64,000 nt of DNA from contig OY970192.1 in NCBI GenBank assembly GCA_963708135.1, forward strand, positions 1,152,001 to 1,216,000. Direction: 5' to 3'. Origin of the DNA: an uncultured Gemmatimonadales bacterium. GTDB taxonomy: Bacteria > Gemmatimonadota > Gemmatimonadetes > Longimicrobiales > RSA9. Position 1 is the first letter of the stretch. Each line of letters opens with the position of its first letter. A program made the position numbers and the translations under genes. This document shows, piece by piece, positions 5,244 to 56,082 of this stretch. Below the pieces are notes generated by a model. The model made no database searches, was not told the origin of the DNA, and was given only the letters and a program-made list of their open reading frames with translations.

Positions 5244-5433
5244 GACTGATTGCGGCACGACCCACTACGGCACGACCGACTGCGGCACGACCCACTACGG
5301 CACGACCGACTGCGGCACGACCAACTGCGGCACGGCCAACGGCGGCACACCAACTGCGACTGACTGCGGCACGACCCACTACGGCACGACCGACTGCGAC
5401 TGACTGCGGCACGGCCAACTACGGCACTACGGC
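5244..5433 (+). repeat. degenerate ~15-bp tandem array, left-type arm (ACTGCGGCACGACCG)
   Basis: Repeated ctgcggcacgacc / ctacggcacgacc units. Confidence 0.9.
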
Positions 5434-5444
5434 GTGAACGGCTG

Positions 5445-5790
5445 CGGGTAGGCTCTTGGGGGCAGCCTGGCGGTCCAGGAAGAAAGCAATCGTCGCGGTC
5501 GTGACGGTCAGCGCGGTGGCCCTCGCGAATCGCGGTGGGCTCGCGCCCACCACGAGCGGCCAGGACTCCGCAGAATCGCTCGGGGGTCCTGCCGAGCCGC
5601 GAGCGGACCTCCAGGTGGTTGCGCTTTGCGCCCCGGCTGCTCGCACCCGTACGCCTCGGAAATCTTGTACTGGCCGGGAACCCCGCCGCGCGCCGAGTCT
5701 GGTCAACGTCCGGGCCGAACCCCGGCGGAAGCAGCTCGATCGGCGCGTGCCCACCTCGGCACCGAGCGCGCTCAGCCGCCAATGATGCGC
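5445..5790 (-). pseudogene. frameshifted four-helix-bundle protein gene (paralog of 19663..20010)
   Basis: DNA aligns by eye with 19663-20010 (acggtcagcgcggtggcc, ctccaggtggttgcgctt, cccggcggaagc); peptides LPPGFGPDVDQTRRAAG, KRNHLEV and ATALTVT lie in different frames. Confidence 0.8.
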
Positions 5791-5805
5791 GGTTGGCTGC
5801 GCCGT

Positions 5806-6106
5806 CCGCCGCCGCAAGGAGTGCCGCCGCCAGGAGTGCCGCCGTAAGCAGCTGCCGCCGTAAGCAGTGCCGCCGTAAGCAGTGGCGCCGCCGTAGGTAG
5901 TGCCGCCGTAAGCAGTGCCGCCGTCGGTAGTGCCGCCGTAAGCAGTTGCCGCCGTAAGCAGTGCCGCCGTAAGCAGTGGCGCCGCCGTAAGTAGTGCCGC
6001 CGTAAGGAGTGCCGCCGTCGGTAGTGCCGCCGTAAGCAGTTGCCGCCGTCCGTAGTGCCGCCGTAAGCAGTTGCCGCCGCAAGAAGTGCCGCCGCCGTAA
6101 GCAGTG
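5806..6106 (-). repeat. degenerate 15-16-bp tandem array, right-type arm (GTGCCGCCGTAAGCA)
   Basis: Repeated gtgccgccgtaagca / gttgccgccgtaag units; CGGCAC core inverted relative to 5244-5433. Confidence 0.9.
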
Positions 6107-6159
6107 TCTCCCCCGAGGGCCGGGGGGGGGACGGCCTTCCGCGGTCCAAGACGTGATCC

Positions 6160-6192
6160 TTGACTTTGTGCCCCCTGCCAATACGTATTAGC
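6160..6192 (+). promoter_or_regulatory. putative promoter with LacI-type operator
   Basis: TTGACT at 6160-6165 and near-palindrome GCCAATACGTATTAGC (central CG) at 6177-6192, upstream of the LacI-family gene. Confidence 0.5.
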
Positions 6193-6332
6193 TCTCGATT
6201 CCACTTTGCTGCACGTATCGGTGGTACGGGCGCGTTTGTCCGCCCGGCGGCGCCCCTCCCCCCGAGGCGGCTGGGTGTTGGGGTGGGGCCGTCCCGAACG
6301 CCGGGGGGGCGGGGGGAATCCCCCGCGTCAAG

Positions 6333-7382
6333 ATGGAGGGGAGGAAATTGCCCAAGCGTCCTCGTGTCACCAGCCACGACGTCGCCGCGCGAGCTGGCGT
6401 CTCGCAGGCCACCGTCTCGCTCGTGTTGAGCGGGAACCCGCGGGCGCGGGTGGCGGAGGCGACGCGAGCGCGGGTGGCGCGGGCGGCGGAGGATCTGGGC
6501 TACCGGCCGAACCTGGTGGCGCGGGCGCTGGTGCAGCGGCGCTCGTACGCGATCGGGGTGGTGGTGCCGACGTTGGAGAATCCGTTCTTCGTGGATGTGG
6601 TGAGCGGGCTGGAGCGGGTGGCGGTGGAGAAGGGCTATGCGGTGCTGCTGTCGAACGCGCGGGGCAACCCGGTGGCGGCGCAGGTGGAGACGCTGCGGGC
6701 GCGCATGGTGGACGGGCTGATCATCGATGCTGCGGGGGCGGCGGCGCTGCCGGAGGAGCTGCTCACGGACGTGAACGTGGTGCTGCTGGAGGAGGTGTCG
6801 GAGCGCTGGCCGACGGTGTCGAGCGATGCCGAGCGGGCGGGCGCGCTGGCGGCGGAGCACCTGCTCGGGCTCGGCCACCGGGCGCTGGCGATGATCGGCC
6901 CGGCCACCGACGTCCATGCGTTCCGGCGGCGGGAGCGGGGGTTCATCGGGGCGCTGCGTGCGGCGGGCCTGTCGGTCCGCTCCGAGTGGCTGCGGCGCTC
7001 GCCGGCCACGGTGCGGGGCGGGCGGGAGGCGATGCGGTCGCTGCTCGGGCTGGCCGAGCGGCCGACGGGCGTCTTCTGCGTGAACGACCTGGCGGCGCTC
7101 GGTGCGCTGAAGGCGTGCCTCTCGGCGCGCGTGCCGGTGCCGGGCGAGGTCTCGCTGGTGGGGTGCGACGACATCGAGATGGCGCGCCTCACGACGCCCG
7201 AGCTCAGCACCGTGACCGTGCCGGCGCGCGAGCTGGGCGCGCGTGCCGCGCGGCTGCTGATCGAGCGGGTCGAGCGGGGCGGGGAGGCGACGCCGCCGCG
7301 CCGGCCGCTCCCGGTCTCGCTGGCCGCGCGGGGGACGACGGGTCCGGCGCCGGCCGCGGCCGCTCCGGAGGTGGCGGGGTGA
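6333..7382 (+). CDS. LacI-family transcriptional regulator
   Basis: HTH VTSHDVAARAGVSQATVSLVL, LGYRPNLVARAL hinge, VGCDD...PELSTV; start may be TTG at 6348. Confidence 0.95.
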   Translation: MEGRKLPKRPRVTSHDVAARAGVSQATVSLVLSGNPRARVAEATRARVARAAEDLGYRPNLVARALVQRRSYAIGVVVPTLENPFFVDVVSGLERVAVEKGYAVLLSNARGNPVAAQVETLRARMVDGLIIDAAGAAALPEELLTDVNVVLLEEVSERWPTVSSDAERAGALAAEHLLGLGHRALAMIGPATDVHAFRRRERGFIGALRAAGLSVRSEWLRRSPATVRGGREAMRSLLGLAERPTGVFCVNDLAALGALKACLSARVPVPGEVSLVGCDDIEMARLTTPELSTVTVPARELGARAARLLIERVERGGEATPPRRPLPVSLAARGTTGPAPAAAAPEVAG

Positions 7383-9280
7383 CGGGCGTCGTGGCGGGCG
7401 GTCTCGTGGCGGGCGGCGCATCGTCGCCGGCGGCCGCGGTCGGCCCGTGGCCGGGCGTCGGGGCGCTCTTCCTCGAGCGCGCCCGGGCGCATCCGGGCCG
7501 CGTGGCCTTCCGGGAGCTGGCGCTGGCCGGCGCGGACGCGGACGGCGCGCTCACGTGGGGCGAATGGGAGGCGGCGGCGCGCCGCTTCGCGGCGGCGCTG
7601 GTGGCGCGCGGCGTGGCGCCGGGGGACCGCGTGGCGGTGCTCGCGGGGAACCGGCGGCAGTGGCCGATCGCGGACCTGGGGACGTTGCTGGCGGGCGGGG
7701 TGGGCGTCGGGATCTATCCGACCAGCGCGCCGGCGCAGGTGGCTCAGGTGCTGGTGGACTCCGGCGCGGCGGTGGTCGTGGTGGACACGCCCGAGCACGC
7801 CGCCATGGTGGCCGCGGTGCGCGCGGCGGTACCCGGCCTCCGGCTGGTGGTCGGCCCGGACGCAGGGGCTGGTGCCCCCGAGGCCATGTCCTGGGCTGCC
7901 TTCCTCGACGCGGGCGGCGCCGCGCTCGCGGACGCGGCGGTGGCGGCGGAGCTCGAGCGGCGGATCGCCGGCGAGCGGCCGGGCGACGTCGCCCTGCTGA
8001 TCTACACGTCGGGCTCGACCGGCGAGCCGAAGGGCGCGCGCATCACGCACGGCGCCCTGCTGGCGTCGGCCGCCTCCATCCGCGAGGCGCTCGGGCTCGG
8101 GCCGGACGACACCTCGCTCTCCCTGCTGCCGTACTGCCACGCGGCCGAGCGGATCTTCGGCCTCTACACGCGCATCCTGGCCGGCATGGAGGCGCTGCTG
8201 GTGCCGGACCACACGCGGGTCTGGGCGGCGGCGCGGGCGTACGGCCCCACGCTCTTCGGCGGGCTGCCGCGCTTCTTCGAGAAGGCGTACGAGGCGCTGC
8301 GGGAGGCGGAGGCGGAGGCGGAGCCGGGCGAGGAGGCGGAGCGCTGGCGGCGCGTGCTGGAGCTGGGCCGCGCCCTCTCGCGCTCGCGCCGCGGCGCCCC
8401 CGGCGCGCCGGCCTGGTCGGCTCGGGAGCTGCGCGCTGCCGGGGTCGAGTGGGCGGCGCTCGGCGAGCCGCTGTTCCGTCGCGTCCGCGAGCTCTTCGGC
8501 GGCCGCGTGCGGACGGCCACGTCCGGCGGCGCCGCGCTGCCGGAGGAGGTGGCCGAGTACCTGGACGCCCTCGGGCTGCGCGTCCTCGGCGCCTATGGGC
8601 TGACGGAGCACCTGTGCGTGGCCATGAACCGGGCCGGCCACTACAGCTTCGACAGCGCCGGCCCGCCGATGCCGGGTACCGAGCTTCGCATCGCGTCCGA
8701 CGGCGAGGTCCAGGTGCGGCGCGGGCCGCTGACCTTCGCCGGCTACCACGGCCGCGAGGCGGACACCGCCGCGGCCTTCACGCCGGACGGGGAGTGGCTC
8801 CTCACCGGCGACGTCGGCACCCTCGACGCGCGTGGCTTCCTCCGCATCACCGGGCGCCGCAAGGAGCTGATCGCGCTGTCAACGGGCAGGAAGGTCGCGC
8901 CGCTGCCGATCGAGGCGCGCCTGTCCGAGCAGCCGCTGATCTCGCGGGCCGTGCTGTACGGCGAGGGCCGGAAGTTCGTCTCGGCGCTCCTGACGCCGCG
9001 CCGCGGCGCCGTCGAGGCGTGGGCGCGGGGCCGCGGCCTCGACCTCGACTACCCGCGCCTGCTCGAGCACCCCGAGCTCCTGGCCCTCGTGCAGCGCGAC
9101 GTGGACGCGGTGAACGCGGGGCTCTCCCGCTCGGAGCGGGTGCGCCGCTTCCTGCTCCTCTCCCGCGAGCTCGCGCCCGAGCTGGACGAGCTGACGCCCA
9201 CGCTCAAGGTGCGCCGCGACGTGGTGCTCGCGCGCTTCGGCCCGGCGCTGGACGCGCTGTATCAGGGGGACGCGCCGTGA
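7379..9280 (+). CDS. long-chain fatty acid-CoA ligase (AMP-dependent synthetase)
   Basis: YTSGSTGEPKG, YGLTE, TGDVG, ELTPTLKVRR; GTGA overlap with the LacI stop. Confidence 0.93.
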   Translation: MTGVVAGGLVAGGASSPAAAVGPWPGVGALFLERARAHPGRVAFRELALAGADADGALTWGEWEAAARRFAAALVARGVAPGDRVAVLAGNRRQWPIADLGTLLAGGVGVGIYPTSAPAQVAQVLVDSGAAVVVVDTPEHAAMVAAVRAAVPGLRLVVGPDAGAGAPEAMSWAAFLDAGGAALADAAVAAELERRIAGERPGDVALLIYTSGSTGEPKGARITHGALLASAASIREALGLGPDDTSLSLLPYCHAAERIFGLYTRILAGMEALLVPDHTRVWAAARAYGPTLFGGLPRFFEKAYEALREAEAEAEPGEEAERWRRVLELGRALSRSRRGAPGAPAWSARELRAAGVEWAALGEPLFRRVRELFGGRVRTATSGGAALPEEVAEYLDALGLRVLGAYGLTEHLCVAMNRAGHYSFDSAGPPMPGTELRIASDGEVQVRRGPLTFAGYHGREADTAAAFTPDGEWLLTGDVGTLDARGFLRITGRRKELIALSTGRKVAPLPIEARLSEQPLISRAVLYGEGRKFVSALLTPRRGAVEAWARGRGLDLDYPRLLEHPELLALVQRDVDAVNAGLSRSERVRRFLLLSRELAPELDELTPTLKVRRDVVLARFGPALDALYQGDAP

Positions 9281-9786
9281 AGCCCCTCATCCTGCGCGCG
9301 ATCGTCGCGAGCACCCTGCTGCTGGCCGCCGCGTACGCCTCGGCGTTCCTGCCCGGCGGCGCGCCCGCCTGGGCGGCCTGGCTGATGGTCGTCGGCACGG
9401 CGGGGCTCATGGTCTCGACCATGGCGCTCGGCGCCGCCCGCGCCGGCCGCATCGGCCGGCTGGCCATCCCCTTCGCGCTGGTGTTCGTGATCCTGGTGGC
9501 CGGCTTCGGCCTCGTGCTGGCCCTGCCGCCGGGCGGCCCGGGCGAGGCGCTGTGGCTGGGGCTTCCCGCGCGCGCCGCCATCGTGCTCTACGGCGTGGGG
9601 CTGCTCCCGCTCTTCGCCGTGCCGCTGGTCTACGCGCTGACCTTCGAGGAGAGCACGCTCTCGGCCGCGGACCTCGAGCGGGTGCGCGCGGCGGCGGCGG
9701 CGCTGCGGGCGGAGCGGCGAACGTCGGCGTGGCCGGGACACGCGCCGGCGGCGGCAGCCGGCGCGGATCGGGAGGCGTCGCCATGA
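9277..9786 (+). CDS. small membrane protein (~4 TM), probable symporter partner
   Basis: Hydrophobic ORF coupled by GTGA/ATGA overlaps between the ligase and the SSS transporter. Confidence 0.75.
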   Translation: MKPLILRAIVASTLLLAAAYASAFLPGGAPAWAAWLMVVGTAGLMVSTMALGAARAGRIGRLAIPFALVFVILVAGFGLVLALPPGGPGEALWLGLPARAAIVLYGVGLLPLFAVPLVYALTFEESTLSAADLERVRAAAAALRAERRTSAWPGHAPAAAAGADREASP

Positions 9787-11294
9787 CCGCCCTTCTCGCC
9801 CTCCTCCAGGCGAAGCCGCTGCCGCCGCTGGCGCAGCCGGCGATCGTGGCGGTCGCCGTCGGCTACTTCGCGGTGGTGGCGGTGATCGGCGCGTGGGCCA
9901 CGCGCCGGACGCGCACGGCGCGCGACTTCTTCGTGGCGGGGCAGGGGATCGGGCTGTGGGCGCTCGCGCTCAGCGCGATGTCCGCCACGCTCTCGGGCTT
10001 CGCGTTCATCGGCGGACCGGGGCTGGTCTACTCGATCGGGCTGGGCGCGATGTACATCATGCTGCCGGCGGCGATCACGGGCGCGATGGGGGCCTGGGTG
10101 CTGGCCAAGCGGCTGCGGATCCTGGGCGAGATCCGCGGCCTGATCACGGTGCCGGACGCCATCGGCGCCCGCTACGGCTCGCCGGCCGCGCAGGGGCTCT
10201 CGGCGCTGGCCATGCTCATCGCGATCGTGGGCTACATGGCCACGAACGTGCTCGCGCTGGGGCTCGTCATCGACGCCATCTTCGGCACCGGCCTCGGCGC
10301 CGGCATCTGGATCGGCACCGCCATCACGCTGGCGTACTCGGTCTCGGGGGGGATCGTCGCCGGCATCTACACGGACATGTTCCAGGGCGCGCTCATGGCG
10401 CTCGCGTCCGTGCTGGTCTTCCTGTTCACGCTCAGGATCGGCCACGGGCTGGCCGGCATCTCGCGCACGCTCGTGGCCGCCGACCCGCGCTTCCTCGGGC
10501 CCTGGGGCGTCCTCACGCCGCTCGCCGCGCTCTCCTTCTTCTTCGTCTTCGGCATGGGCTCGCTCGGGCAGCCGCACGTGCTCCACAAGTTCTACATGCT
10601 GCGCGACCCGCGCCGGCTCAAGTGGTTCCCGCTGCTCGGCACGTCCGCGATCCTCGTGGCCACGCTCCTCTTCTTCGGCGTGGGCGTGGCCGTGAAGAGC
10701 CTCGTGGCCCGCGGCGCGCTCGCGCCGCTCGCGAGCCCCGACGAGGCGACGCCGACGTTCCTGCTCCACTTCACCCCGACGCTGCTCGCGGGCCTCGTCT
10801 TCTCCGGCGTGGCCGCCGCGATCATGAGCACCGTCAACTCCTTCATGAACATCGGCGCGGCGGCGCTGACCCACGACCTGCCCCTGGCGCTGGGGCTCGC
10901 GCCGGGCGACGAGCTGCTCGGCGGGCGCATCGCCACGGTCGCGCTGTCGGTGCTCGCCGCGGCGCTGGCGCAGGTCTCGGGCACCCTCGTCGCCTTCCTC
11001 GGCATCTTCGGCTGGGGGCTCTTCGCCTCCACGCTCGTGCCCGCCCTCGCCATCGGGCTGAACTGGACGGGCGCCACCCGCGAGGGCGCCATCGCCTCGA
11101 TCCTGACCGGCATCGTATTGACGCTCGTCTTCGAGACGCTCGGCTATTTCCGCCTCTACAGCTTCCCCGCGGGCGTGACGGTCTCCGGCCTCTCGCTCGT
11201 GTGCAGCTTCCTGGTGTTCTTCCTCGTCTCCCATCTCACGCGCGGGCGTGCCGGGTCCCTCGACCCCGACGTCCGCCTGGCCATGGAGGTGTGA
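9783..11294 (+). CDS. sodium:solute symporter (SSS, PutP/PanF-like)
   Basis: DFFVAG, SATLSGFAFIGGPG, GQPH, AAIMSTVNS; many TM helices. Confidence 0.93.
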   Translation: MTALLALLQAKPLPPLAQPAIVAVAVGYFAVVAVIGAWATRRTRTARDFFVAGQGIGLWALALSAMSATLSGFAFIGGPGLVYSIGLGAMYIMLPAAITGAMGAWVLAKRLRILGEIRGLITVPDAIGARYGSPAAQGLSALAMLIAIVGYMATNVLALGLVIDAIFGTGLGAGIWIGTAITLAYSVSGGIVAGIYTDMFQGALMALASVLVFLFTLRIGHGLAGISRTLVAADPRFLGPWGVLTPLAALSFFFVFGMGSLGQPHVLHKFYMLRDPRRLKWFPLLGTSAILVATLLFFGVGVAVKSLVARGALAPLASPDEATPTFLLHFTPTLLAGLVFSGVAAAIMSTVNSFMNIGAAALTHDLPLALGLAPGDELLGGRIATVALSVLAAALAQVSGTLVAFLGIFGWGLFASTLVPALAIGLNWTGATREGAIASILTGIVLTLVFETLGYFRLYSFPAGVTVSGLSLVCSFLVFFLVSHLTRGRAGSLDPDVRLAMEV

Positions 11295-11434
11295 CGGTGA
11301 CCGACGACCCCGGCACGACCGGCCGGCGCGCCTCCGGGCCCGCCGCCCCCGTGCGCGGCCTCCGCCGCGCGCCGCAGCGACTCAACCGTGTCCGTCCGCG
11401 GGCACACTCCATCTCTCCACGCAAGGAGCAGACA

Positions 11435-13945
11435 ATGCACAGGACCTCATCGGCGCGTCCCGGATGGTGGACGCTCCTCGTGGCGGCGGCGCTCGCGCTC
11501 GTCCCCGCCGCGGCCGTCGCGCAGGCGGGTGCCATCACGGGCAGGGTGAGCGACGAGAAGTCCGCCCCCGTCCCGGCCGCCCAGGTCGTGGTCGAGGGCA
11601 CCCGCTTCGGCGTGCTGACCGACGCCGCCGGCGTCTACACGATCCGCGGCGTGCCGGCCGGCAGCCAGACGCTGGTCGTGGACTACCCCGGCTTCAGGAC
11701 GGCCCGCGTGCCGGTCACCGTGGCGGCCGGCGCCACGCTCACGGCCGACATCCGCCTCGAGGGCCGCCCGATCGCCATCGCGGGCGTGGTCGTCTCCGCC
11801 TCGCGCCGTCCCGAGCGCATCACCGATGCGCCCGCCACGATCACGCGCATCGGCACGGCCACGCTCGACAACTCGGTCGGCAACACCTGGGCGGGGGCCC
11901 TCAAGGAGGTGAAGGGGCTCGACTTCATCCAGGTCGGCATGACGAGCATCGCCGTGAACGCGCGCGGCTTCAACTCCTCCTTCAACAACCGCATGCTGAT
12001 GATGGAGGACGGGCGCGTGGCCGTGCTGCCGGAGAGCGGGCTGCCGACGGGGCCGCTCTCGGCGCTGCCCAAGATCGACCTGTCCGGCGTCGAGGTGCTG
12101 GTCGGCCCGGGCGCCGCGCTCTACGGCCCGGACGCCTCGAACGGCGTGATCACCCTCACCTCGAAGGACCCGAAGCAGTTCCCCGGCACCACCCTCGAGC
12201 TGACGGGCGGCAACCGCTCCTACCGCGACATCCAGTTCCGCCAGGCGAGCGTGCTCGGCGAGGGCGACTGGGGGCTCAAGGTCGCGGGCGAGTACCAGGA
12301 GGCCAACGACTGGAGCAACGCGCTGCGCTACGCCGGCGTCGGCGGCGCCATGGTCAGCGAGGACTCGATGGGGATCAACTCCATCGACTTCCACAGCAAG
12401 GTCGCGCGCGGCGAGGGCGCGCTCGTGCGCTACATCGGCGACGCGCGCATCGAGCTCGCCGGCGGCGTCAGCCGCACGGACGGCGTCGGCCAGACCAACG
12501 TCGGCCGCAACCAGTTCCGCGGCTGGATCTACGACTTCCAGCAGCTGCGCGCCTCCAACCGCAGCTGGTACTTCGACGCCTACCGCACGCACTCCAACTC
12601 GGGCGACTCCTACGCGCTCAACCGCTATGCGACGTTCTACACGACCGCCCTCTCGCCCGACTCCGTGCGCCACCTGGCCGACTGGCCGAGCAACGGCCAG
12701 ATCTTCGCGGCCGAGCTGCAGAACAACTTCACGCTGCCGCGGCTCCTCAACACGCACTTCATCTGGGGCGGCCAGATCCGCCACGACGTGGTCACCAGCG
12801 ACCGGCAATGGCTGACGGACCGCCTCACGGGCAAGGACCTCACGATCGACCAGAAGGGCGTCTACGCCCAGGCCGAGGCGCCGCTCATGCCCTGGCTCCA
12901 GCTGGTGCTCGCCGGCCGCTACGACGACCACGACAAGTACGACGGGCAGTTCAGCCCCAAGGCCGCGCTCGTCCTGAAGCCGACCGAGAACCAGTCGCTG
13001 CGCCTCAGCTACAACCGCGCGTTCAAGTCGCCGACCATACTGCAGACGGACTTCTTCATTCCCGACTGGACGCCCGTCATCTCGGTGCTCGGCAACACGA
13101 CCGGCTACACGATCAAGGACGCGAGCGGCGCCGTGAAGCGCACCTTCGGCCCGCTCCAGCCCGAGGAGAACCGCACCTGGGAGGTGGGCTACAAGGGGAT
13201 CCTCGCCGACCGCCTCTACCTCGACGTGGCCGGCTACTACTCGAAGTACAGGAACTTCATCAGCCCGCTCTCCATCGTCTCCGACCCGTTCGGGCTCGGC
13301 TACGCCGGCTACCCCGCGGGCGTGAAGACCATGGCCTACGATGCCGGCGGCCAGCTCGTCACCAACCTCTCGGGCATCCCGCCGATCCTGCTCATCTACT
13401 ACAACCTCGGGCAGGCGACGGTGAAGGGCCTCGACGCCGGGGTGAACTTCTACGCCAGCCCGAAGCTCACCCTCGACGGCACCTTCTCCCTCGTGGACCT
13501 CGCCAGCACGGACGTGGCCGCGGGCCTCGAGGAGGCCACGGCGCTGAACTCGCCCGGCACCAAGTGGACGCTCGGCGCCGCCGTCCAGGACCTCGGCCGC
13601 TCGCAGTCGCTGCAGAGCTTCTCCGGCCGCTTCGTCGCCCGCTACGTGAACGGCTACTACTTCCGCTCCGGCATCAACCGCGGCGTGATCCCGACGTTCA
13701 CCACGCTGGACATGAACCTGGGCTACGACCTGCCCTCGCTCAGCTCCACCATCACGCTCGGCGTGAGCAACCTCTTCACGTGCGCGCAGGACGGCGCCCT
13801 GCAGTACGCCGCGACGGACGCGCTCCAGACCAGCCCCACCAACCGGAGCACGAGCTGCGGCTTCAACGTGAAGCACCAGGAGATGATCAACATGCCCTCC
13901 ATGGGCACCATGCTGTTCCTGGGCGTCCGCTACCACGCGCGGTAG
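11435..13945 (+). CDS. TonB-dependent receptor with N-terminal carboxypeptidase-regulatory-like domain
   Basis: AAGGAG RBS, signal peptide, VVVSASRRPE, plug motif VEVLVGPGAALYG, PEENRTWEVGYKG. Confidence 0.93.
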   Translation: MHRTSSARPGWWTLLVAAALALVPAAAVAQAGAITGRVSDEKSAPVPAAQVVVEGTRFGVLTDAAGVYTIRGVPAGSQTLVVDYPGFRTARVPVTVAAGATLTADIRLEGRPIAIAGVVVSASRRPERITDAPATITRIGTATLDNSVGNTWAGALKEVKGLDFIQVGMTSIAVNARGFNSSFNNRMLMMEDGRVAVLPESGLPTGPLSALPKIDLSGVEVLVGPGAALYGPDASNGVITLTSKDPKQFPGTTLELTGGNRSYRDIQFRQASVLGEGDWGLKVAGEYQEANDWSNALRYAGVGGAMVSEDSMGINSIDFHSKVARGEGALVRYIGDARIELAGGVSRTDGVGQTNVGRNQFRGWIYDFQQLRASNRSWYFDAYRTHSNSGDSYALNRYATFYTTALSPDSVRHLADWPSNGQIFAAELQNNFTLPRLLNTHFIWGGQIRHDVVTSDRQWLTDRLTGKDLTIDQKGVYAQAEAPLMPWLQLVLAGRYDDHDKYDGQFSPKAALVLKPTENQSLRLSYNRAFKSPTILQTDFFIPDWTPVISVLGNTTGYTIKDASGAVKRTFGPLQPEENRTWEVGYKGILADRLYLDVAGYYSKYRNFISPLSIVSDPFGLGYAGYPAGVKTMAYDAGGQLVTNLSGIPPILLIYYNLGQATVKGLDAGVNFYASPKLTLDGTFSLVDLASTDVAAGLEEATALNSPGTKWTLGAAVQDLGRSQSLQSFSGRFVARYVNGYYFRSGINRGVIPTFTTLDMNLGYDLPSLSSTITLGVSNLFTCAQDGALQYAATDALQTSPTNRSTSCGFNVKHQEMINMPSMGTMLFLGVRYHAR

Positions 13946-13949
13946 GCGC

Positions 13950-15026
13950 GTGGCTCGCGGGCGGGGCGGGCAGGACGGGGCGCCGGCGGTCGGCATCGTG
14001 GCCGTCGGCACCTACCTGCCCGCCGGCCACCTGACGGCCGCGGACATCGCGCAGGCGTCCGGCATCCCGGAGACCGTCGTGGTGGAGAAGCTGGGCATCA
14101 CCCGCAAGACGGTCGGCTCGCCGGACGAGCACCCGAACGAGATGGGTGTGCGCGCCGCGCTCGACTGCCTGGCCGCCGCTCCGGTGCCGGCGGAGGAGAT
14201 CGACGTCGTCCTGTGCACGACGGAGGAGTGGAAGGAGTACCCGGTGTGGACGGCGGGCATCGACCTGGCCGACCGGATCGGCGCCCGCCGCGCCTGGGCC
14301 GCCGACGTCCACATGCGCTGCGCCGGCACCGTCGGCGCCATGAAGATGGCGCGCGACATGATCCGCTCCGACCCCGAGATCCGGCACGTCCTGATCGCCG
14401 GCGGCTACCGCATCGCGGACCTGATCGACCTCGGCGACGCGCGCACCTCGTTCCTCTTCAACATCGGCGCGGGCGCCGGCGCCATGCTGCTCTCCCGGGA
14501 CTGGCCCCGCAACGAGGTGCTCGGCAGCCACATCATCACGGACGGCTCGCTCAGCCGCAGCGTGGTCGTCCCGGTGGGCGGGACGCTGCGGCCCCTCACG
14601 GCCGGCGCGGACCCGGCCGACTTTCACCTGACCCTCGTCGAGCCGGAGCGGATGAAGCGGCGGCTGGACGAGGTCTCCATGGACAACTGGCTGATGTGCG
14701 TGGACGAGGCGCTCCGCAGGAGCGGCACCCGCCCCGACGGCCGGCCGTGGACGCGCGCCGACCTGGACTACCTGAACATCCTGCTGATCAAGCCGTCCGC
14801 GCATCGCGAGATGCTGGCCCGGCTGGGGATGGACGAGACGCAGTCGTGCTACCTCGGCGAGATCGGCCACATCGGCGAGCAGGATGCGATGTTCTCGATC
14901 CGCGAGGGGCTCCGCACCGGCCGGCTGCGCGACGGAGGGCTCATGGCCATCGTGGCCGCGGGGATCGGATACGTCTGGGCGGCGGGGGTGGTGAGGTGGG
15001 GGGAAAGGGAAGGGGGAACTGCTTGA
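13950..15026 (+). CDS. 3-oxoacyl-ACP synthase III (FabH)-like condensing enzyme
   Basis: GIVAVGTYLP, catalytic Cys in HMRCAG, GAGAGAML, GHIG, AAGIGYVW. Confidence 0.9.
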   Translation: MARGRGGQDGAPAVGIVAVGTYLPAGHLTAADIAQASGIPETVVVEKLGITRKTVGSPDEHPNEMGVRAALDCLAAAPVPAEEIDVVLCTTEEWKEYPVWTAGIDLADRIGARRAWAADVHMRCAGTVGAMKMARDMIRSDPEIRHVLIAGGYRIADLIDLGDARTSFLFNIGAGAGAMLLSRDWPRNEVLGSHIITDGSLSRSVVVPVGGTLRPLTAGADPADFHLTLVEPERMKRRLDEVSMDNWLMCVDEALRRSGTRPDGRPWTRADLDYLNILLIKPSAHREMLARLGMDETQSCYLGEIGHIGEQDAMFSIREGLRTGRLRDGGLMAIVAAGIGYVWAAGVVRWGEREGGTA

Positions 15027-15217
15027 AGCGGCACTACATAAACCGGCACTACACAAACCGGCAACTGCTCAAACCGGCACTACACAAACCGGCACTGCAT
15101 AAACCGGCAACTACTCAAACCGGCACTACATAAACCGGCACTACACAAACCGGCAACTGCTCAAACCGGCACTACACAAACCGGCACTACGTGAACCGGC
15201 AACTGCTCGAGGCGGCA
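15018..15217 (+). repeat. solo tandem array (AAACCGGCACTACAC / AAACCGGCAACTGCTC), CGGCAC family
   Basis: About 12 units of 15-16 bp between the FabH-like and FabG-like genes. Confidence 0.9.
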
Positions 15218-15235
15218 GGACACGGGGGGGAACGG

Positions 15236-16000: not shown

Positions 16001-16019
16001 GGGGAAGGGAGGCACCTCC

Positions 16020-17567
16020 ATGCACGCGGGCGACCTGCTGACGCACCGGGCGCGCATGACCCCGGACGCCGAGGCGCTCCTCGAGCTGCACACCGGCCGG
16101 CGCTACGGCTACCGCGAGCTGAACGAGCGCGCCTGCGGCGCGGCCAACTTCCTGCGCGAGCGCATCGGAATCCGCGCCGGCGACCGGGTGGCCGTGCTGG
16201 CGCACAACGGCGTCGCCTGCCTGGACCTGCTCTACGGCGTCGCCAAGATCGGCGCCATCCTGGCCCCGCTCAACTGGCGCCTGAGCGCGCCCGAGCTCGC
16301 CTTCATCCTCGGCGACATGGAGCCCGCCGTGCTCCTCGCCGGCCCCGAGTTCACGGGCGTGCTGGACGAGCTCGCCGCCGCCACGGCGCTGCCGGCCATG
16401 GTGGCGCTCGACGGCGCGCCCATCGCGGGCGCCGCGGACTACGAGGCGGAGCTCGCGCGCGCCTCAGCCGCCGAGCCGGCGCGTCCCCCGCTCGATGCCG
16501 GGACGCCGTACTGCCTGCTCTACACCTCAGGCACGACCGGCACACCGAAAGGCGCGGTGCTGCCGCACCGGCAGGTGCTCTGGAACTGCATCAACACGGT
16601 CGTGAGCTGGGGGCTGCGGCCCGACGACGTGACGCCGGTCTTCACGCCGCTCTTTCACACGGGCGGCCTCTTCGCCTACCTGGCGCCGGTGCACTACGTG
16701 GGCGGGCGGGTCGTGCTGGCGCGAGGGTTCGACGCGCAGGCGTCGCTTCGCACGATCGTGGAGGAGCGCTGCACGGTGGTCCTCGGCGTGCCCACGATCT
16801 ACCGCATGTGGATGGACGCGCCCGGCTGGGCGGAGGCGGACTTCTCCCACGTCCGCAACTTCAACAGCGGTGGCGCGCCGTGCCCGCCCGAGCTCATGGA
16901 CCGCTGGCGCCGCGACAAGGGCGTGGTGTTCCGCCAGGGCTACGGGCTCACCGAGGTCGGCCCCAACTGCTTCAGCATGACCGACGCGCAGTCCCTCGCC
17001 AGGTCCGGCTCCGTGGGCACGCCGATCCTGAACAGCGCCATGCGCCTCGTGGACCCCGCCACCGGCCGCGACGTCGGCACCGACGAGCCCGGCGAGCTGT
17101 GGATCTCCGGGCCGCACGTCTGCGCCGGCTACTGGCGCCGCCCCGAGGCCACCGCCGAGGCGCTGGTCGACGGCTGGTTCCGCACCGGCGACATGTTGCG
17201 CCGCGACGCCGACGGCTTCCACTACGTCATCGGCCGCTACAAGGACATGATCAAGAGCGGCGGCGAGAACATCTACGCCGCCGAGGTCGAGGCGCTCTTC
17301 CGCCAGCACGACGCCGTGGCCGACGCCGCCCTCATCGGGCTCCCGGACGAGACGTGGGGCGAGGTCGGTCTCATGGTCGTGGTCGCGCGGCCGGGCGCAC
17401 GCTGCACGCCGCAGGAGCTGCTCGACTTCTGCCACGGCCGCATCGCCCGCTACAAGATCCCCCGCCGCGTGGTCTTCGCGGACGCCCTGCCCTACTCCGC
17501 CTACGGCAAGGTGCTCAAGGCGGAGCTGCGCCGGATCCACCTGAGCCCCATGGAAGGCGACGCATGA
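16020..17567 (+). CDS. acyl-CoA synthetase (FadD/MenE-like AMP ligase)
   Basis: YTSGTTGTPKG, GYGLTE, FRTGD, GRYKDMIKSGGENIY, GKVLK. Confidence 0.93.
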   Translation: MHAGDLLTHRARMTPDAEALLELHTGRRYGYRELNERACGAANFLRERIGIRAGDRVAVLAHNGVACLDLLYGVAKIGAILAPLNWRLSAPELAFILGDMEPAVLLAGPEFTGVLDELAAATALPAMVALDGAPIAGAADYEAELARASAAEPARPPLDAGTPYCLLYTSGTTGTPKGAVLPHRQVLWNCINTVVSWGLRPDDVTPVFTPLFHTGGLFAYLAPVHYVGGRVVLARGFDAQASLRTIVEERCTVVLGVPTIYRMWMDAPGWAEADFSHVRNFNSGGAPCPPELMDRWRRDKGVVFRQGYGLTEVGPNCFSMTDAQSLARSGSVGTPILNSAMRLVDPATGRDVGTDEPGELWISGPHVCAGYWRRPEATAEALVDGWFRTGDMLRRDADGFHYVIGRYKDMIKSGGENIYAAEVEALFRQHDAVADAALIGLPDETWGEVGLMVVVARPGARCTPQELLDFCHGRIARYKIPRRVVFADALPYSAYGKVLKAELRRIHLSPMEGDA

Positions 17568-18664
17568 CAACCGAAACCTCACCGGCGCCGACCCTCACGG
17601 GGGTCGAGGCCCGCACGGTCCGCTCCTCCCGCCTCGCCACGCGCGTGCTCTTCTCGGGCCGCGCCGACGGCGTGCCCGTCCTCTTCCTCCACGGCAACCT
17701 GAGCTCCGCCACGTGGTGGGAGCAGACGATGCTCGCGCTGCCGGACGGCTTCCGCGCCATTGCGCCCGACCAGCGCGGCTTCGGCGAGGCCGACTCCGCC
17801 GCCACGATCGACGCCACCCGCGGCCTCGCCGACCTCGCGGACGACGCCTTCGCGCTCCTCGACGCGCTCGCCATCGCGCGCGCGCACGTCGTCGCGTGCT
17901 CGCTCGGCGGCGGCGTCGTCTGGCGCATGCTCGCCGACGACCCCGCGCGCATCCTCTCCGCCACGCTCTCCGCCCCCGGCTCGCCGTACGGCTTCGGCGG
18001 CACCATCGACGCGGAGGGCACGCCCGCCTGGGGCGACCACGCGGGCAGCGGCGCCGGGCTCGTCCACCCCGAGCTCGCCCGCCGCCTCGCGGAAGGCGAC
18101 CGCTCCGCCGACCACCCGCTCTCCCCGCTCAACGGGCTCCGGCGCCTGGTCTGGAACCCGCCGTTCATCCCCGCCCGCGAGGCCGCGCTGCTCGACGCCA
18201 CGCTGCGCACTCACCTCGGACGCGACGCCTACCCCGGGGACGCCCAGCCCTCGCTCAACTGGCCCTTCTTCGCCCCCGGAATGCGCGGCCCGAACAACGC
18301 CATCTCGCCCGCCTACGCGGGAGGCGTCGAGCGGCTCTGGGAAGGCGACGCCGCGCGCCCGCCGATCCTGTGGATCCGCGGCGACCGCGACCTCGCCGTC
18401 TCCGACGCCGCCGCCTCCGACCCCGGCACCCTCGGTCGCTTGGGGCTCATCCCCGGCTGGCCCGGAACCGACGTCTTCCCGCCGCAGCCGATGCTGCGCC
18501 AGACCCGCCGGGTGCTCGAGCGCTACGCCGCCGCGGGCGGCGCGTTCCGGGAGCACGTCATGCCCGGCGCGGGCCACGCCCCGTTCCTCGAGCGCGCGGA
18601 GGAGTTCGACGGACTGCTGCACGCAATGCTCCGCGAGCCGGTGGGGACGGTGAAAGATGGTTGA
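17564..18664 (+). CDS. alpha/beta hydrolase
   Basis: FLHGN, PDQRGFG, nucleophile elbow ACSLGGG, GHAPFLE; ATGA overlap with the ligase. Confidence 0.9.
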   Translation: MTTETSPAPTLTGVEARTVRSSRLATRVLFSGRADGVPVLFLHGNLSSATWWEQTMLALPDGFRAIAPDQRGFGEADSAATIDATRGLADLADDAFALLDALAIARAHVVACSLGGGVVWRMLADDPARILSATLSAPGSPYGFGGTIDAEGTPAWGDHAGSGAGLVHPELARRLAEGDRSADHPLSPLNGLRRLVWNPPFIPAREAALLDATLRTHLGRDAYPGDAQPSLNWPFFAPGMRGPNNAISPAYAGGVERLWEGDAARPPILWIRGDRDLAVSDAAASDPGTLGRLGLIPGWPGTDVFPPQPMLRQTRRVLERYAAAGGAFREHVMPGAGHAPFLERAEEFDGLLHAMLREPVGTVKDG

Positions 18665-19472
18665 AAGGACGGCGGACGGCGGCACGACGAACACCGGCAC
18701 GACCGACACCGGCACGACCGACACCGGCACGGCTGACGGCGGCACGACGAACACCGGCACGACCGACACCGGCACGACTGACGGCGGCACGACGAACACC
18801 GGCACGACCGACACCGGCACGACTGACGGCGGCACGACTGACGGCGGCACGACTGACGGCGGCACGACCGCCGGCGGCACGACCAGCCTCGGGGTGGGGA
18901 GGGCGGGGCCGGGCGCGAAGGGGTTGACCGTACTGGCCACGTTGGCATACATCCGCCGCACGGCCGGGGAGGAGCGGATGGAGGCGGTGCTCGGGCGGCT
19001 GCCCGAGAAGGCGCGGCGGGGGCTGAAGGGAATCGTCGCCACGGAGGAGGTGCCGTGGCAGGTGCTGTCGGGGCTGCTGCGGGCCGCCGATGCGGTGCTC
19101 GCGGCGGACGACCCGGGCTGGATCGAGGCGGCCGGTGCCTACGCGATCGAGTCGCTCGGGGTGGAGTACTACGGCGGGATACTGCGCAAGAAGAGCCCGC
19201 TCGAGTTTCTCATGCAGCCCGTCTCGCTCTTCCAGCTCTACTATCACCCCGGCAACATGGAGGTGGTCGAGGCCGGCACCGGCCTGGCCGTGCTGCGGCT
19301 GGTCGGCTTCGAGCACGGCAACGTCCTCTTCTGCCGCCGCCAGACGGGCGGCCTGCGCCGAGCGCTCGAGCTCGCGGGCGGCCGCCAGCCGACCGTCCGC
19401 CACGTTCGCTGCACCGAGGACGGCGACGGCTACTGCGAATGGGAGCTGCGCTGGGGAGAAGCGGGGGAGTAA
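18657..19472 (+). CDS. V4R-like small-ligand-binding protein with N-terminal pentapeptide repeats
   Basis: C-terminal C..G....ALEL.G...V.H..C...GD.YCEW pattern; start overlaps the hydrolase stop. Confidence 0.7.
   Translation: MVERTADGGTTNTGTTDTGTTDTGTADGGTTNTGTTDTGTTDGGTTNTGTTDTGTTDGGTTDGGTTDGGTTAGGTTSLGVGRAGPGAKGLTVLATLAYIRRTAGEERMEAVLGRLPEKARRGLKGIVATEEVPWQVLSGLLRAADAVLAADDPGWIEAAGAYAIESLGVEYYGGILRKKSPLEFLMQPVSLFQLYYHPGNMEVVEAGTGLAVLRLVGFEHGNVLFCRRQTGGLRRALELAGGRQPTVRHVRCTEDGDGYCEWELRWGEAGE
18670..18885 (+). repeat. 15-bp tandem array (CGGCAC core) in frame within CDS, encoding TTDGG/TTDTG/TTNTG
   Basis: About 14 units such as acgactgacggcggc and acgaccgacaccggc. Confidence 0.9.
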
Positions 19473-19488
19473 GGGGCGGGAGCACAAG

Positions 19489-19628
19489 CTGACTGCGGCA
19501 CGGCTGACTGCGGCACGACCGACTGCGGCACGGCTGACTACGGCACGGCTGACTGCGGCACGACCGACTGCGGCACGGCTGACTGCGGCACCACCAACTG
19601 CGGCACCAACAGCGGCACGGCTGACCGC
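19489..19628 (+). repeat. left-type CGGCAC tandem arm
   Basis: Repeated ctgactgcggcacgg / ccgactgcggcacg units. Confidence 0.9.
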
Positions 19629-19662
19629 GGGCGGACTCGGGAGCGGGGGGGCGGGGCTGCTT

Positions 19663-20010
19663 TCAGGGCGGTAATGTCGCGGACCAGGAAGTAAGCATCT
19701 TCGCAATCGTCACGGTCAGCGCGGTGGCCTTGGTGATTGCGGCAGGCTCGAGCCCACCGCGATTGGCCAGCCGGCGCAGGATCGCGCGGGTTTCATCCAC
19801 TGAGCCGCGAGCGATCTCCAGGTGGTTGCGCTTCCGGCCTGGCTGCTCGGATCCGTACGCCTGGGCAATGTTGTACAGGACGGATCCCGCTGCGCGGCGA
19901 AGCTGGTCGATGTCCCTGCTGAAGCCCGGCGGAAGCCGCGCGATCAGCACGTGCACCTCCGCGTCGAGCCGCTCCGCCGCCTGGTACACCCGTAGCCGTT
20001 CGAAGCTCAT
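19663..20010 (-). CDS. four-helix-bundle protein (23S rRNA IVP / TIGR02436-like, Avd-like fold)
   Basis: 115 aa: MSFERLRVYQ..DQLRRAAGSVLYNIAQAYG..HLEIARGSVDET..IAKML. Confidence 0.9.
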   Translation of the reverse strand: MSFERLRVYQAAERLDAEVHVLIARLPPGFSRDIDQLRRAAGSVLYNIAQAYGSEQPGRKRNHLEIARGSVDETRAILRRLANRGGLEPAAITKATALTVTIAKMLTSWSATLPP

Positions 20011-20269
20011 GGCCGAGGATGGCTGCGCGATCGGGGCACCGCCATGCCCGTCGGGGACGATGCTCGTGCCGCTCGAGTAGCCGCCGCCGGGATCCACGGA
20101 AGGGGCCTTGATCGCCGGACGGAGCGCCGCCAGAAGGCGCAGATCGGGTTGGACGACGCCCACCAGTGGACGCACGCGCTGCACGATCAGCACCTCGACT
20201 ACCAGGGCGCTCCGCCCTCCCGGCGCTTGGTCCACAGGTCCGAGCTCGGGCCGGTAGGCACTCCCCCCG

Positions 20270-20582
20270 CCGCTTTCAACTGCTTCTGACGCTGGTGCCT
20301 GACGCGAAGGACCCACGCGGTGTCTTCGGGACGTCGTAGAGAACTCGGTATCCGTTCGAGAGTATGACGTTCCGGACGTCGCGACCCCAGGCGGCACGCT
20401 CCGGCGCGTACGGGTGACGCTTCGCGAACTGGTCCAGGCGGTGGATGCCCTCCATGACATCCTCGAACCACCGATCCGGAAACTCGACGCTCACCTTGCC
20501 TGAACGCGCTCGGGCTTCGAGTTCCTGGTGGATCCGCTCGAATGTCTCGCTCTGCCGATGGAGCGACGCCGATGGCGTACAC
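20270..20582 (-). pseudogene. RelE/ParE-family toxin with two frameshifts, no intact antitoxin
   Basis: Joined frames give VYAIGVAPSAERD-ERIHQEL..IHRLDQFAKRHPYAPE..VRNVILSNGYRVLYDV-EDTAWVLRVRHQRQ. Confidence 0.75.
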
Positions 20583-20612
20583 CCGCTACCGCGCCCGCCG
20601 CCGGACGTTCAG

Positions 20613-20671
20613 CCCGCCTCAAGTCGTTGCCGCCGCAAGTAGTGCCGCCGTAGAAGCAGTTGCCGCCGTAA
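20613..20671 (-). repeat. short right-type arm (GTGCCGCCGTA)
   Basis: cccgcctcaagt followed by gttgccgccgcaagt, agtgccgccgtag, gttgccgccgtaag. Confidence 0.75.
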
Positions 20672-20686
20672 GAGCCGTCCCTCCTC

Positions 20687-21478
20687 TCAGCCGGGTGCTT
20701 TCACTCCCGCGAGCACGTCGATCACGGCTGCGGGGTCCCGCAGCTCGCGGGCGCGCACGACCCAGAGGGCCGCGGTCAGCGACGGTCCAGGGTTCAGGAT
20801 CCGCCGCCCGAGCTGCTCGACGATCCGGTCCTGCAGCGCCACCTGCGCGTCGAATCCGGCGGGCGTCTCCGCGGCGAGGAGCTGCGCCGCCTGCCACGCC
20901 GTGCCGCGTGTCGCGGAGAGGCCGAAGGCGGCGAGTCGCTCGTCCTCGCGGCCCGCGAGCGCGTCCAGCAGCCCGGACCACGGCGAGATCCGGTTCAGCC
21001 GCTGCTGCACGGATTCGATCATTCCGTCCAGCAGCGTGGTGATCTCGCGGAAGTCGCGCTCGAGTCCCGGCAGCTGCGCGCCGGGCGAGGTCCTGGCCGC
21101 CGCGATCGCGAGGTCGAGGTTGATGTGCGCGTTCATCCCCGCGAGCAGGTGCTGCAGCACCACGGGTGGCCAGGTGGCGGCGGCGCGGAACGCGAGTGCC
21201 CAGCTGCGCGTCGTCTCCTGTCCGGCACGCTGACGCCAGAGCGCGTCGAGGTAGCGGCCCGCGAAGAGGACGTCGAGCCGCTCCATCCTCGCGCCATCCA
21301 CGAATCGGCCGCCGGCGATTCCGCGCTGGACCTCCGCCGTGACGCCACGGTAGAGGACGGCGAAGTAGCCGAGCCGGCTGCGCGTCCGGCGGCACTCATC
21401 CACGACGCGGTCGAGCTCCTCGAGCACGCCGTCGATCGTGGCCGGCAGGAGTCGGGTGTCGACGTTCGGCAAGGGCAT
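20687..21478 (-). CDS. DUF5995-family protein
   Basis: LGYFAVLYRGVT, RMERLDVLFAGRY, QHLLAGMNAHINLDL. Confidence 0.8.
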   Translation of the reverse strand: MPLPNVDTRLLPATIDGVLEELDRVVDECRRTRSRLGYFAVLYRGVTAEVQRGIAGGRFVDGARMERLDVLFAGRYLDALWRQRAGQETTRSWALAFRAAATWPPVVLQHLLAGMNAHINLDLAIAAARTSPGAQLPGLERDFREITTLLDGMIESVQQRLNRISPWSGLLDALAGREDERLAAFGLSATRGTAWQAAQLLAAETPAGFDAQVALQDRIVEQLGRRILNPGPSLTAALWVVRARELRDPAAVIDVLAGVKAPG

Positions 21479-21603
21479 TACCTGGACCCGCTTCTTGGGG
21501 GGGGAATTTCGGCCGCCCGCGGACCCCCGGGGGGGAAGGGGGCCCGGGCACCAAGGTAGGGCGCGTGGCTCCGTTTGGGGATGGTCTTAACCACGAGGTG
21601 CCG

Positions 21604-22098
21604 GCGCGACGGACTACGACCGACAGCGGCACGACCGACTACGGCGAACTGCGGCACCACCGACTGCGGCACCGCCGACCGCGGCACGACCACTACGGCG
21701 AACTGCGGCACGACTCGCTGCGGCACCGCGGACTGCGGCATGACGGACTGCGGCACCGCCGACTACGGCACGACGGACTACGACCGACAGCGGCACGACC
21801 GACTACGGCGACCTGCGGCACGACGCACTACGGCACCGCCGACTGCGGCACGACGGACTGCGGCACCGCCGACTGCGGCACGACGGACTGCGGCACCGCC
21901 GACTGCGGCACGACGGACTGCGGCACCGCCGACTACGGCACGACCAAATACGACCGACTGCGGCGAACTGCGGCACGACTCGCTGCGGCACCGCGGACTG
22001 CGGCACGACGGACTGCGGCACCGCCGACTACGGCACGACGGACTACGACCGACAGCGGCACGACCGATTACGGCGACCTGCGGCACGACTCGCTGCGG
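21604..22098 (+). repeat. long left-type CGGCAC tandem arm with higher-order repeats
   Basis: About 500 bp of gactgcggcacgacg / gactgcggcaccgcc units. Confidence 0.92.
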
Positions 22099-22141
22099 CC
22101 AGGCTCGTGAGCCGCGCCGGAGTGCGGCACCTACTGCTCGT

Positions 22142-22291
22142 CCCGCCTCAAGTAGTGCCGCCTCGCTGCCGCCGCAGGTGGTGCCGCCGTAGGTAGTGCC
22201 GCCGTAAGGTAGTGCCGCCGTAAGTGGTGCCGCCGTAAGTAGTGCCGCCGTAAGCAGTGGCGCCGCCGTACGCAGTGCCGCCGTATGCAGT
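22142..22291 (-). repeat. right-type arm (GTGCCGCCGTAAG)
   Basis: cccgcctcaagt followed by repeated gtgccgccgta(a/g)g units. Confidence 0.9.
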
Positions 22292-22295
22292 CCGC

Positions 22296-52592: not shown

Positions 52593-52608
52593 GAAGGGCG
52601 TCCCGGCG

Positions 52609-53760: not shown

Positions 53761-53764
53761 TCCA

Positions 53765-54337: not shown

Positions 54338-54373
54338 GCCGCGTTCTCCGCTCCCCCGCGTCTCCGCGTGGAA
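53930..54373. mobile_element. putative 444-bp GxxExxY unit bounded by 28-bp inverted repeats
   Basis: TTCCACGCCGAGAGGCCGAGGAGCGGAG at 53930 and CTCCGCTCCCCCGCGTCTCCGCGTGGAA at 54346-54373. Confidence 0.55.
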
Positions 54374-56052: not shown

Positions 56053-56082
56053 CGCCGCCGATCCGTCCGGCGGAGCGTCCCT

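Follow-up and report, generated by a model that had tools for sequence, protein, structure and literature searches.

Small bacterial genes which are accompanied by their own cognate repeats are known from the RAYT/REP system. There the gene of the REP-associated tyrosine transposase (RAYT) is located between two inverted cognate repeats (repetitive extragenic palindromes, REP), the two of which differ in the case of E. coli yafM. Inverted doublets without a gene and single copies are found between genes, the trees of repeats and proteins match, and REP copies accumulate near the rayt gene (Nunvar et al. 2010, PMC2817692). The intervening sequence (IVS) of the Coxiella 23S rRNA has terminal inverted repeats as well as heptamer repeats before the S23p gene (PMC4990558). 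Ssn is a GIY-YIG nuclease with shown activity on single-stranded DNA and with palindromic motifs (PMC11893778), and Avd, the accessory protein of diversity-generating retroelements (DGR), acts on RNA together with its reverse transcriptase (PMC6182149). Here we describe a gene for a four-helix-bundle protein of the family PF05635, which lies between inverted repeat arrays in the genome of an uncultured Gemmatimonadales bacterium. The window, i.e. the whole stretch of 64,000 nucleotides that was analysed, corresponds to positions 1152001-1216000 of contig C1 (OY970192.1) in genome G000. This genome consists of one contig of 5.45 Mb with a GC content of 72% and a completeness of 97.65%, and the named relatives of the four-helix-bundle protein belong to the Longimicrobiales / Gemmatimonadota. 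The layout of the cassette, the polarity of its repeat arrays (arms), the local crowding of arms around the gene, the gain and loss of units at orthologous junctions and the match between repeat sequence and protein lineage are direct observations. As to their explanation, we see an even chance that they represent a RAYT/REP-like element of gene plus cognate repeats, which is based on a non-enzymatic Avd-like protein and would appear and disappear between host genes.

Three loci with left arms and differing, inverted right arms had been described in an earlier note on this DNA, and all of them were found at their places. Locus A consists of a pseudogene of the four-helix-bundle protein (5470-5780, minus strand), which lacks the promoter-like motif described below and the first codons, a downstream arm with T-type units (5245-5447, plus strand, ACT[G/A]CGGCAC core) starting about 20 nt past a host stop codon, and an upstream arm of the purine type (5803-6106, minus strand, ACGGCGGCAC on that strand). 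At locus B the T-type arm (19483-19631, plus strand) starts 10 nt past the host stop codon at 19472 and lies downstream of the gene for P0001 (19663-20010, minus strand), a protein of 115 aa assigned to PF05635/TIGR02436; the short purine-type arm (20613-20678, minus strand) has its outer end right behind the stop codon of a DUF5995 gene. Locus C was rightly regarded as nearly empty: between a T-type arm with 25 cores in the tandem-repeat and unit analysis (21612-22099, plus strand) and a purine-type arm with its outer end a few nt behind the stop of an amino-acid permease gene (22142-22292, minus strand) there are only 42 bp (22100-22141) instead of the about 45 bp given before, and these show no significant match to the gene. 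The list of loci for 5244-22291 was incomplete in so far as two solo arms had been missed. One of them (15017-15218, plus strand, a AAACCGGCAC variant) is located between a FabH-like gene and a short-chain dehydrogenase gene, the other one (18668-18887, plus strand, ACACCGGCAC / ACGGCGGCAC) starts right behind the stop codon at 18664. The FabH-like gene reads into the neighbouring arm (15017-15026), whose first unit contains its stop codon, so that the last codons of the gene are supplied by the arm. Loci A-C are flanked by protein genes and lie outside 23S rRNA genes.

The arms had been taken for CGGCAC microsatellites. They are indeed tandem and polarised, but not hexamer repeats, since each unit measures about 15 bp around an invariable CGGCA[C/A] core, as in a minisatellite, and no other core spacing comes near 15 in frequency (228 cases). 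Within the window, 57 tandem occurrences of CGGCAC/GTGCCG cores at a distance of 14-16 bp were counted, compared to 0.3 on average and never more than 2 when blocks of 3 bases were shuffled 50 times. Units with ACTG/ACTA before the core were defined as T-type and those of the opposite-arm class as purine-type. The left arms of loci A, B and C contain 10/11, 8/9 and 21/25 T-type units, the right arms 0/15, 0/3 and 0/6. Individual arms are internally homogeneous in unit sequence, and units such as ACTGCGGCACGACCA are non-palindromic on inspection. According to fold and duplex predictions the terminal inverted repeats of armed loci can form a stem; locus C folds as a long hairpin (z -3.1, 0/20 shuffles as good), and the duplex of two arms contains a purine-purine mismatch once per unit. 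The inner edge CCCGCCTCAAGT, previously noted as identical at 20613 and 22142, is identical and occurs nowhere else in the genome; it is, however, a clipped form of a unit variant which is also present in other arms. A scan of window positions 1-30000 against Rfam gave 0 matches.

In the complete genome of G000 a tandem-repeat scan revealed 39 arms at 30 loci, of which 21 are solos and nine are pairs whose arms face inward; from the 40 arrays listed, one of 21 bp was dropped as a different repeat. Seven pairs show a clean polarity, one a partial and one none. Neighbouring arms less than 500 bp apart face inward in 8/8 cases, and all copies of the subfamily gene are located inside pairs, so that neither a random orientation of the arrays nor a lack of enrichment next to these genes, named beforehand as the outcomes that would speak against a link, was observed. 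The copies comprise two full-length genes (the window copy with Gln50 and a Glu-bearing copy at 4.81 Mb), the pseudogene of locus A and a probable remnant in a pair at 1.146 Mb, whose alignment scores against the two genes were equalled by 0/300 and 3/300 random segments. The remnant is oriented as the other copies, and the purine-type arm is upstream in all four gene-bearing pairs, which agrees with the common orientation noted earlier. Pairwise alignment of the six gene-less interiors gave this one probable remnant and one weak signal (13 and 8 of 300 nulls); five of the nine pairs, locus C included, have no significant gene trace. Two inward-facing solos 3.8 kb apart (4.897-4.901 Mb) were not counted as a pair, as ordinary host genes lie between them. 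Six of the 30 loci are found within 30 kb around the window's gene, and when intergenic positions were drawn at random, a cluster of six at any place in the genome was obtained in only 1 of 20,000 draws.

The genome of G000 has 12 matches to PF05635, which correspond to 11 genes, one of them split by an insertion. Each of these genes has its own short repeat on both sides (by eye). Two of the paralogue repeats are clearly dispersed, a 9-mer (16 arrays vs 0 in the reversed control) and a 6-mer (15 vs 0), while the dispersed arrays of two others are at or near the level of the reversed control. Of the 14 other arrays in another paralogue's 9-mer family, 2 lie no more than 25 kb from the gene (3234531-3259729), which faintly resembles the crowding at the window gene. 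The split gene (2369145-2370787 of C1) is interrupted by an insertion of about 1.3 kb, IS4-type by eye, and still has GAGCAA / TTGCGC arms.

Relatives of the subfamily in metagenome and genome contigs could be identified with an alignment; scans with the single protein gave none. In other Gemmatimonadota genomes and metagenomes the subfamily genes are flanked by related inverted 13-15-mers. T-type units account for 38/55 downstream motifs and 10/54 upstream motifs, and of the five relative loci in which both arms could be scored, three share this tendency, a fourth shows it weakly and the fifth is reversed. For the family as a whole we compared the flanks of 98 PF05635 loci with both flanks present, which were not de-duplicated and include four from G000. 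At least 20 inverted 8-mer matches were found in 46 of them and direct ones in 5. None of 350 shifted windows showed such inverted sharing, but the comparison of inverted with direct matches is the fairer control because the shifted windows are mostly coding. Over 58 loci, which include kin and are not independent, repeat similarity tracks protein similarity (Mantel r 0.43, 0/2000 permutations), and repeats are shared in 1/108 same-genome pairs below 50% identity vs 24/135 different-genome pairs of at least 50%. Judged from these comparisons, the repeat sequence follows the protein lineage and not the host genome. A tandem signature in 58/58 of these loci is left aside, as there is no control for it.

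The triple-core pattern was counted in 301 genomes of the order, and high numbers were reached by G000 (187) and G001 (166) only; close subfamily genes (E below 1e-30) were found in G000, G109 and G120. In the outward-facing arm pairs L343 (G109:C84:2050-2750), L344 and L346 the arms are joined through a short hairpin spacer; these pairs resemble end-to-end junctions of a circle or tandem, and in L343 a promoter-like motif follows the arm pair without a gene. Close cassettes in G109 (L213, C100) and G120 (L216/L227, C215) adjoin the same small gene pair, toxin-antitoxin-like by eye, on opposite sides. Two further cassettes, L016 and L097, are located just downstream of an rpoC-like gene (by eye), possibly a slot shared across species.

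Presence and absence in relatives, suggested earlier as a check, were followed at orthologous junctions. At one convergent junction of three congeneric genomes a full cassette with 14-mer arms is found in G109, an inverted 9-mer pair of another family without a gene in G120, and a bare gap of 18 bp in G163; the arms in G109 and G120 begin at host stop codons. For the slot of the 5.050 Mb pair of G000, 27 of 35 fetched relative loci had both neighbours, 20 of the 35 being hand-picked from the match table, partly for long gaps. Eighteen of the 27 are short and bare, five contain other short repeats (by eye) and four other sequence; CGGCAC arms were seen in 0/27. The slot of the 5.295 Mb solo had both neighbours in 14/15 relative loci. 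Ten are bare; of the other four, one contains a GxxExxY-type gene with its repeats (by eye), two contain other inverted repeat pairs and one another hairpin. It is in G006 that the GxxExxY-type cassette fills the slot of this CGGCAC solo. The FabH-like neighbour of the solo at 15017 has one match in the family, in another gene order. Since orthologous junctions show a bare gap, another repeat family or a repeat-flanked gene, armed units are gained and lost at these sites.

The protein P0001 exceeds the profile cut-offs of PF05635/TIGR02436 (63.7 bits with a cut-off of 33.8, and 58.7 bits with a cut-off of 24). Its structure model (pLDDT 97.4) consists of four helices. The best match is 2GSC with a root-mean-square deviation of 1.2-1.5 A; the model is closest to Xcc0516 (TM about 0.9), followed by Avd and BT_0352, and the comparison with Avd, proposed earlier, thus yielded a shared fold with a TM of about 0.8. 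Xcc0516 and Avd are both described as pentamers (PMC6182149, PMC10053308), and P0001 is presumably a pentamer like these homologues. The protein is basic, with an isoelectric point (pI) of 10.5-11 (10.5 for P0001). The gene had been called intact, which holds for the open frame only, because Gln50 replaces a near-invariant Glu present in 67/68 aligned relatives.

Before the ATG of the gene, at a fixed distance and conserved among relatives of the subfamily, there is a motif (20011-20052, minus strand) which can be written as YAT..TGCCC, about 17 nt, xATxxT, 5 nt, ATG. It probably serves as a leaderless promoter; strict sigma-70 and terminator scans, which included this region, gave 0 sites. 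A possible relic of one or two upstream-type units adjoins the motif (20066-20095, minus strand; weak, by eye).

The pseudogene of locus A is decayed as noted before and differs from the gene of locus B by 56 mismatches, 8 insertions and 1 deletion at 245 matches. The indels are mostly insertions (8/9), the reverse of the usual bacterial bias towards deletion. A short-read contig is identical to the window over 5520-5699, so that the frameshifts are unlikely to be assembly errors. Other short-read contigs agree with the window over 19658-20519 and 22038-22302, and among the matches listed no joint skipping an element was seen. All these contigs originate from one DNA run, possibly of the source sample, and serve as an assembly check, not as independent biology. 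No RNA run with matches to this DNA was among those listed.

Locus B also contains a piece of a toxin-antitoxin module (20241-20613, minus strand), namely a parE-like gene with two frameshifts and the last codons of an antitoxin gene. The ParE remnant reported earlier is real by homology: the piece itself has no Pfam match, its homologues pass the ParE_toxin cut-off, and over 378 nt it shares 86% identity with an intact Phd-ParE module in G036. This match stops at 20613, the inner edge of the arm, inside the antitoxin gene. The proposal of a cargo-carrying cassette did not hold. A search of 350 other genomes yielded four homologous loci, each with an antitoxin-like gene upstream (by eye), none of them (0/4) with a four-helix-bundle gene or with CGGCAC arms, and no other pair in G000 encloses an unrelated gene. 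On this homology the ParE piece is a one-off relic of a truncated ordinary Phd-ParE module, and the short arm (20613-20678) that follows the stop codon of the DUF5995 gene might itself be a solo.

Compared to the known systems the cassette is closest to RAYT/REP in its presumed way of working and to the S23p intervening sequence in its protein. Like a rayt gene, the gene in G000 has inverted cognate repeats at both sides, further copies of which are scattered between genes, and arm copies accumulate near the window gene, though not near the second copy. The protein is, however, not a tyrosine transposase, and in contrast to the REP palindromes the units are non-palindromic 15-mers in head-to-tail order, which form a hairpin only between arms. 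With the Coxiella IVS (PMC4990558) the cassette shares a PF05635 gene, inverted ends, short repeats in tandem ahead of the gene and traces of decay; unlike it, the units are intergenic and not part of an rRNA, and many copies have no gene. The small single-domain gene flanked by its own dispersed repeats, with one variant per homologue, resembles Ssn / NTS (SRM) (PMC11893778), whereas the PF05635 protein has no known catalytic site. Fold and basic character are those of Avd and Xcc0516 (PDB 4DWL, 8UB7, 2GSC), but a pair of template and variable repeats as in DGRs is missing. Transposable elements of the miniature inverted-repeat type (MITEs) and composite transposons differ by their ends, which here are arrays of variable length, and by their transposase, which was found in no pair. 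A search of the mainly open-access literature revealed no description of such cassettes outside rRNA.

The enzymes of these systems were looked for as well. RNase III (PF14622, PF00636) was found neither in G000 nor in 4/4 relatives of its family, with controls positive in 8/14 cases. All five genomes of the family (G000, G001, G109, G012, G009) are thus without a match to the RNase III domain, which is unusual for bacteria. Reverse transcriptase (PF00078) gave 0 matches in G000 and the Y1 transposase (PF01797) none, and no GIY-YIG domain was detected in P0001, PF05635 being the sole family matched by this protein. The routes of IVS, DGR and RAYT would therefore have to work without their enzyme in G000. 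A helper could have been lost or could belong to another family. The earlier picture of a transposase-less unit, bounded by polarised tandem arrays and present in filled, decayed and empty forms, agrees with these results.

For the RAYT/REP-like element we favour the following course. The gene would be transcribed from its own leaderless promoter, and the protein likely recognises its own repeats. By analogy with Avd, a basic pentamer ring might bind runs of single-stranded repeat units. Ring proteins such as TRAP wrap short repeats. The two arms would pair as a long hairpin, in which the purine-purine mismatch of each unit could mark the strand. New arms would be seeded above all in the vicinity of an active gene, as is the case for REPs and rayt genes, and cutting and joining would be left to a host or partner enzyme. 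Copies would then erode from the upstream arm inward, as suggested by locus A, the remnant at 1.146 Mb and the cut antitoxin, and gene-less pairs as well as solo arms are likely worn-down or newly seeded derivatives of the package.

Several results weigh against this explanation. No helper or cutting enzyme for the unit was identified in G000, we know of no catalytic motif in the PF05635 family, and the unit may not move by itself, 21/39 arms being solos. No target duplication is visible at three junction series, where the relatives are other species or genera. The Gln50 protein of the window may be inactive, as judged from the conservation of the Glu, which weakens the step of seeding near an active gene unless the change is recent; no further arm locus lies less than 30 kb from the Glu-bearing gene at 4.81 Mb, and the crowding could also result from plain local duplication. 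Polarity is not clean in 2/9 pairs of G000 and weak or reversed in 2/5 informative relative loci, and G109 has outward-facing arm pairs. The genome of G001 (91% complete, 390 contigs) has 166 pattern matches, and no subfamily gene was found in it. Co-variation of repeats and proteins over 58 loci is predicted by joint inheritance alone. In G000 the arrays end between CGG and CAC at 25/39 outer and 25/39 inner ends (p about 1e-3 and 1e-4; the test was devised once the pattern had been noticed), which was not reproduced in the relatives (7/37 and 14/38 ends).

Arms behind stop codons would also be expected if the protein were a domesticated RNA-binding regulator with the arms as binding sites in transcripts, an explanation that we regard as unlikely but as deserving attention. 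Such a protein would control termination, decay or translation and regulate itself via its own flanks; slippage and gene conversion would alter the arrays, and transfer of the package would be passive only, by recombination between conserved neighbouring genes. Outer ends within 46 nt of a same-strand stop codon are found in 22/39 arms, and for the solos 11/21 outer ends compare with 2/21 inner ends; these distances are based on home-made gene calls, of which a few overlap arrays and are doubtful. The action of Avd on RNA with its reverse transcriptase (PMC6182149), the internally homogeneous arms, as predicted by slippage, and the fact that some array sites are kept across species fit such a regulator too. 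What does not fit is that the neighbouring genes have no common function, that the same slots are bare in most relatives, and that the orientation of the gene relative to host transcription varies between loci; crowding near the gene and the frequent pseudogenes would be left unexplained. Pairing of the arms in RNA is the essence of another proposal, a messenger version of the 23S rRNA intervening sequence whose insert is excised by RNase III. The same protein family, the inverted ends and heptamers before S23p in Coxiella (PMC4990558) and the long hairpin of locus C speak in its favour, but with no RNase III domain found in the genomes tested, with intergenic units and with solo arms, which cannot form a stem, it is scarcely credible.

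A non-autonomous cargo-capturing transposon of the MITE or composite type, with the arms as termini on which a transposase encoded elsewhere acts and the four-helix-bundle gene and ParE as passengers, would account for the inward-facing pairs and for the ParE-antitoxin homology that ends exactly at the inner edge of the arm, and other insertion sequence (IS) elements are present in the genome, one of them splitting a PF05635 gene. We consider it rather improbable: more than half of the arms are solo, neither a target duplication nor a Y1 transposase match is seen, the four-helix-bundle gene is the only repeated passenger, each subfamily has its own repeat, and none of the four ParE homologous loci carries the gene. 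That the arrays are mere by-products of slippage, without function and neighbours of these genes by chance, would agree with the lack of an adjoining gene at most arms and with G001, where many arrays are accompanied by no detected subfamily gene. The location of all subfamily copies in pairs, the excess of inverted over direct matches (46/98 vs 5/98) and the repeats following the protein lineage make chance a very poor explanation.

Apart from the cassettes, the window contains large arrays of 108-283-bp units at 52607-56065, inside which 9-bp tandem runs are found at 53843-53927 (CGGCTGACC x9.4) and 55381-55403 (CGGCCGACC). A sequence of at least 352 bp is present in four near-identical copies in G000 (5048600-5048951, 3082269, 5126169 and 2412982) and is probably the end of an insertion sequence.

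To our knowledge PF05635 is a very common family without a known stand-alone role. The present data provide each of its subfamilies with its own candidate ligand. G000 appears well suited for further work, as RNase III, reverse transcriptase and Y1 transposase were not found and three known explanations are removed together; in addition, full gene, pseudogene, remnant, empty pair and solo arm form a natural series in it, a near-invariant residue occurs both as Glu and as Gln, and there are eleven paralogues whose repeats differ. On present evidence the cassette is a further variant of the systems of a small gene plus cognate repeats and not a carrier of cargo. A more far-reaching idea, which is possible although we would rather doubt it, is a selfish class whose non-enzymatic protein, a five-fold ring, would recognise its own tandem repeat and cause this repeat to multiply locally without transposase, reverse transcriptase and RNase III, many subfamilies with different repeat codes competing, together with GxxExxY-type cassettes, for slots at the side of stop codons. 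If true, it would account for what proteins of the Avd/S23p family do when they stand alone and for the source of many bacterial intergenic short tandem repeats, and it would define a family of sequence-programmable repeat-binding rings. Should the protein bind and spread its repeats, a third route beside RAYT and Ssn would exist by which small genes populate genomes, and already the recognition of its repeats would give an orphan family a testable role outside ribosomal RNA.

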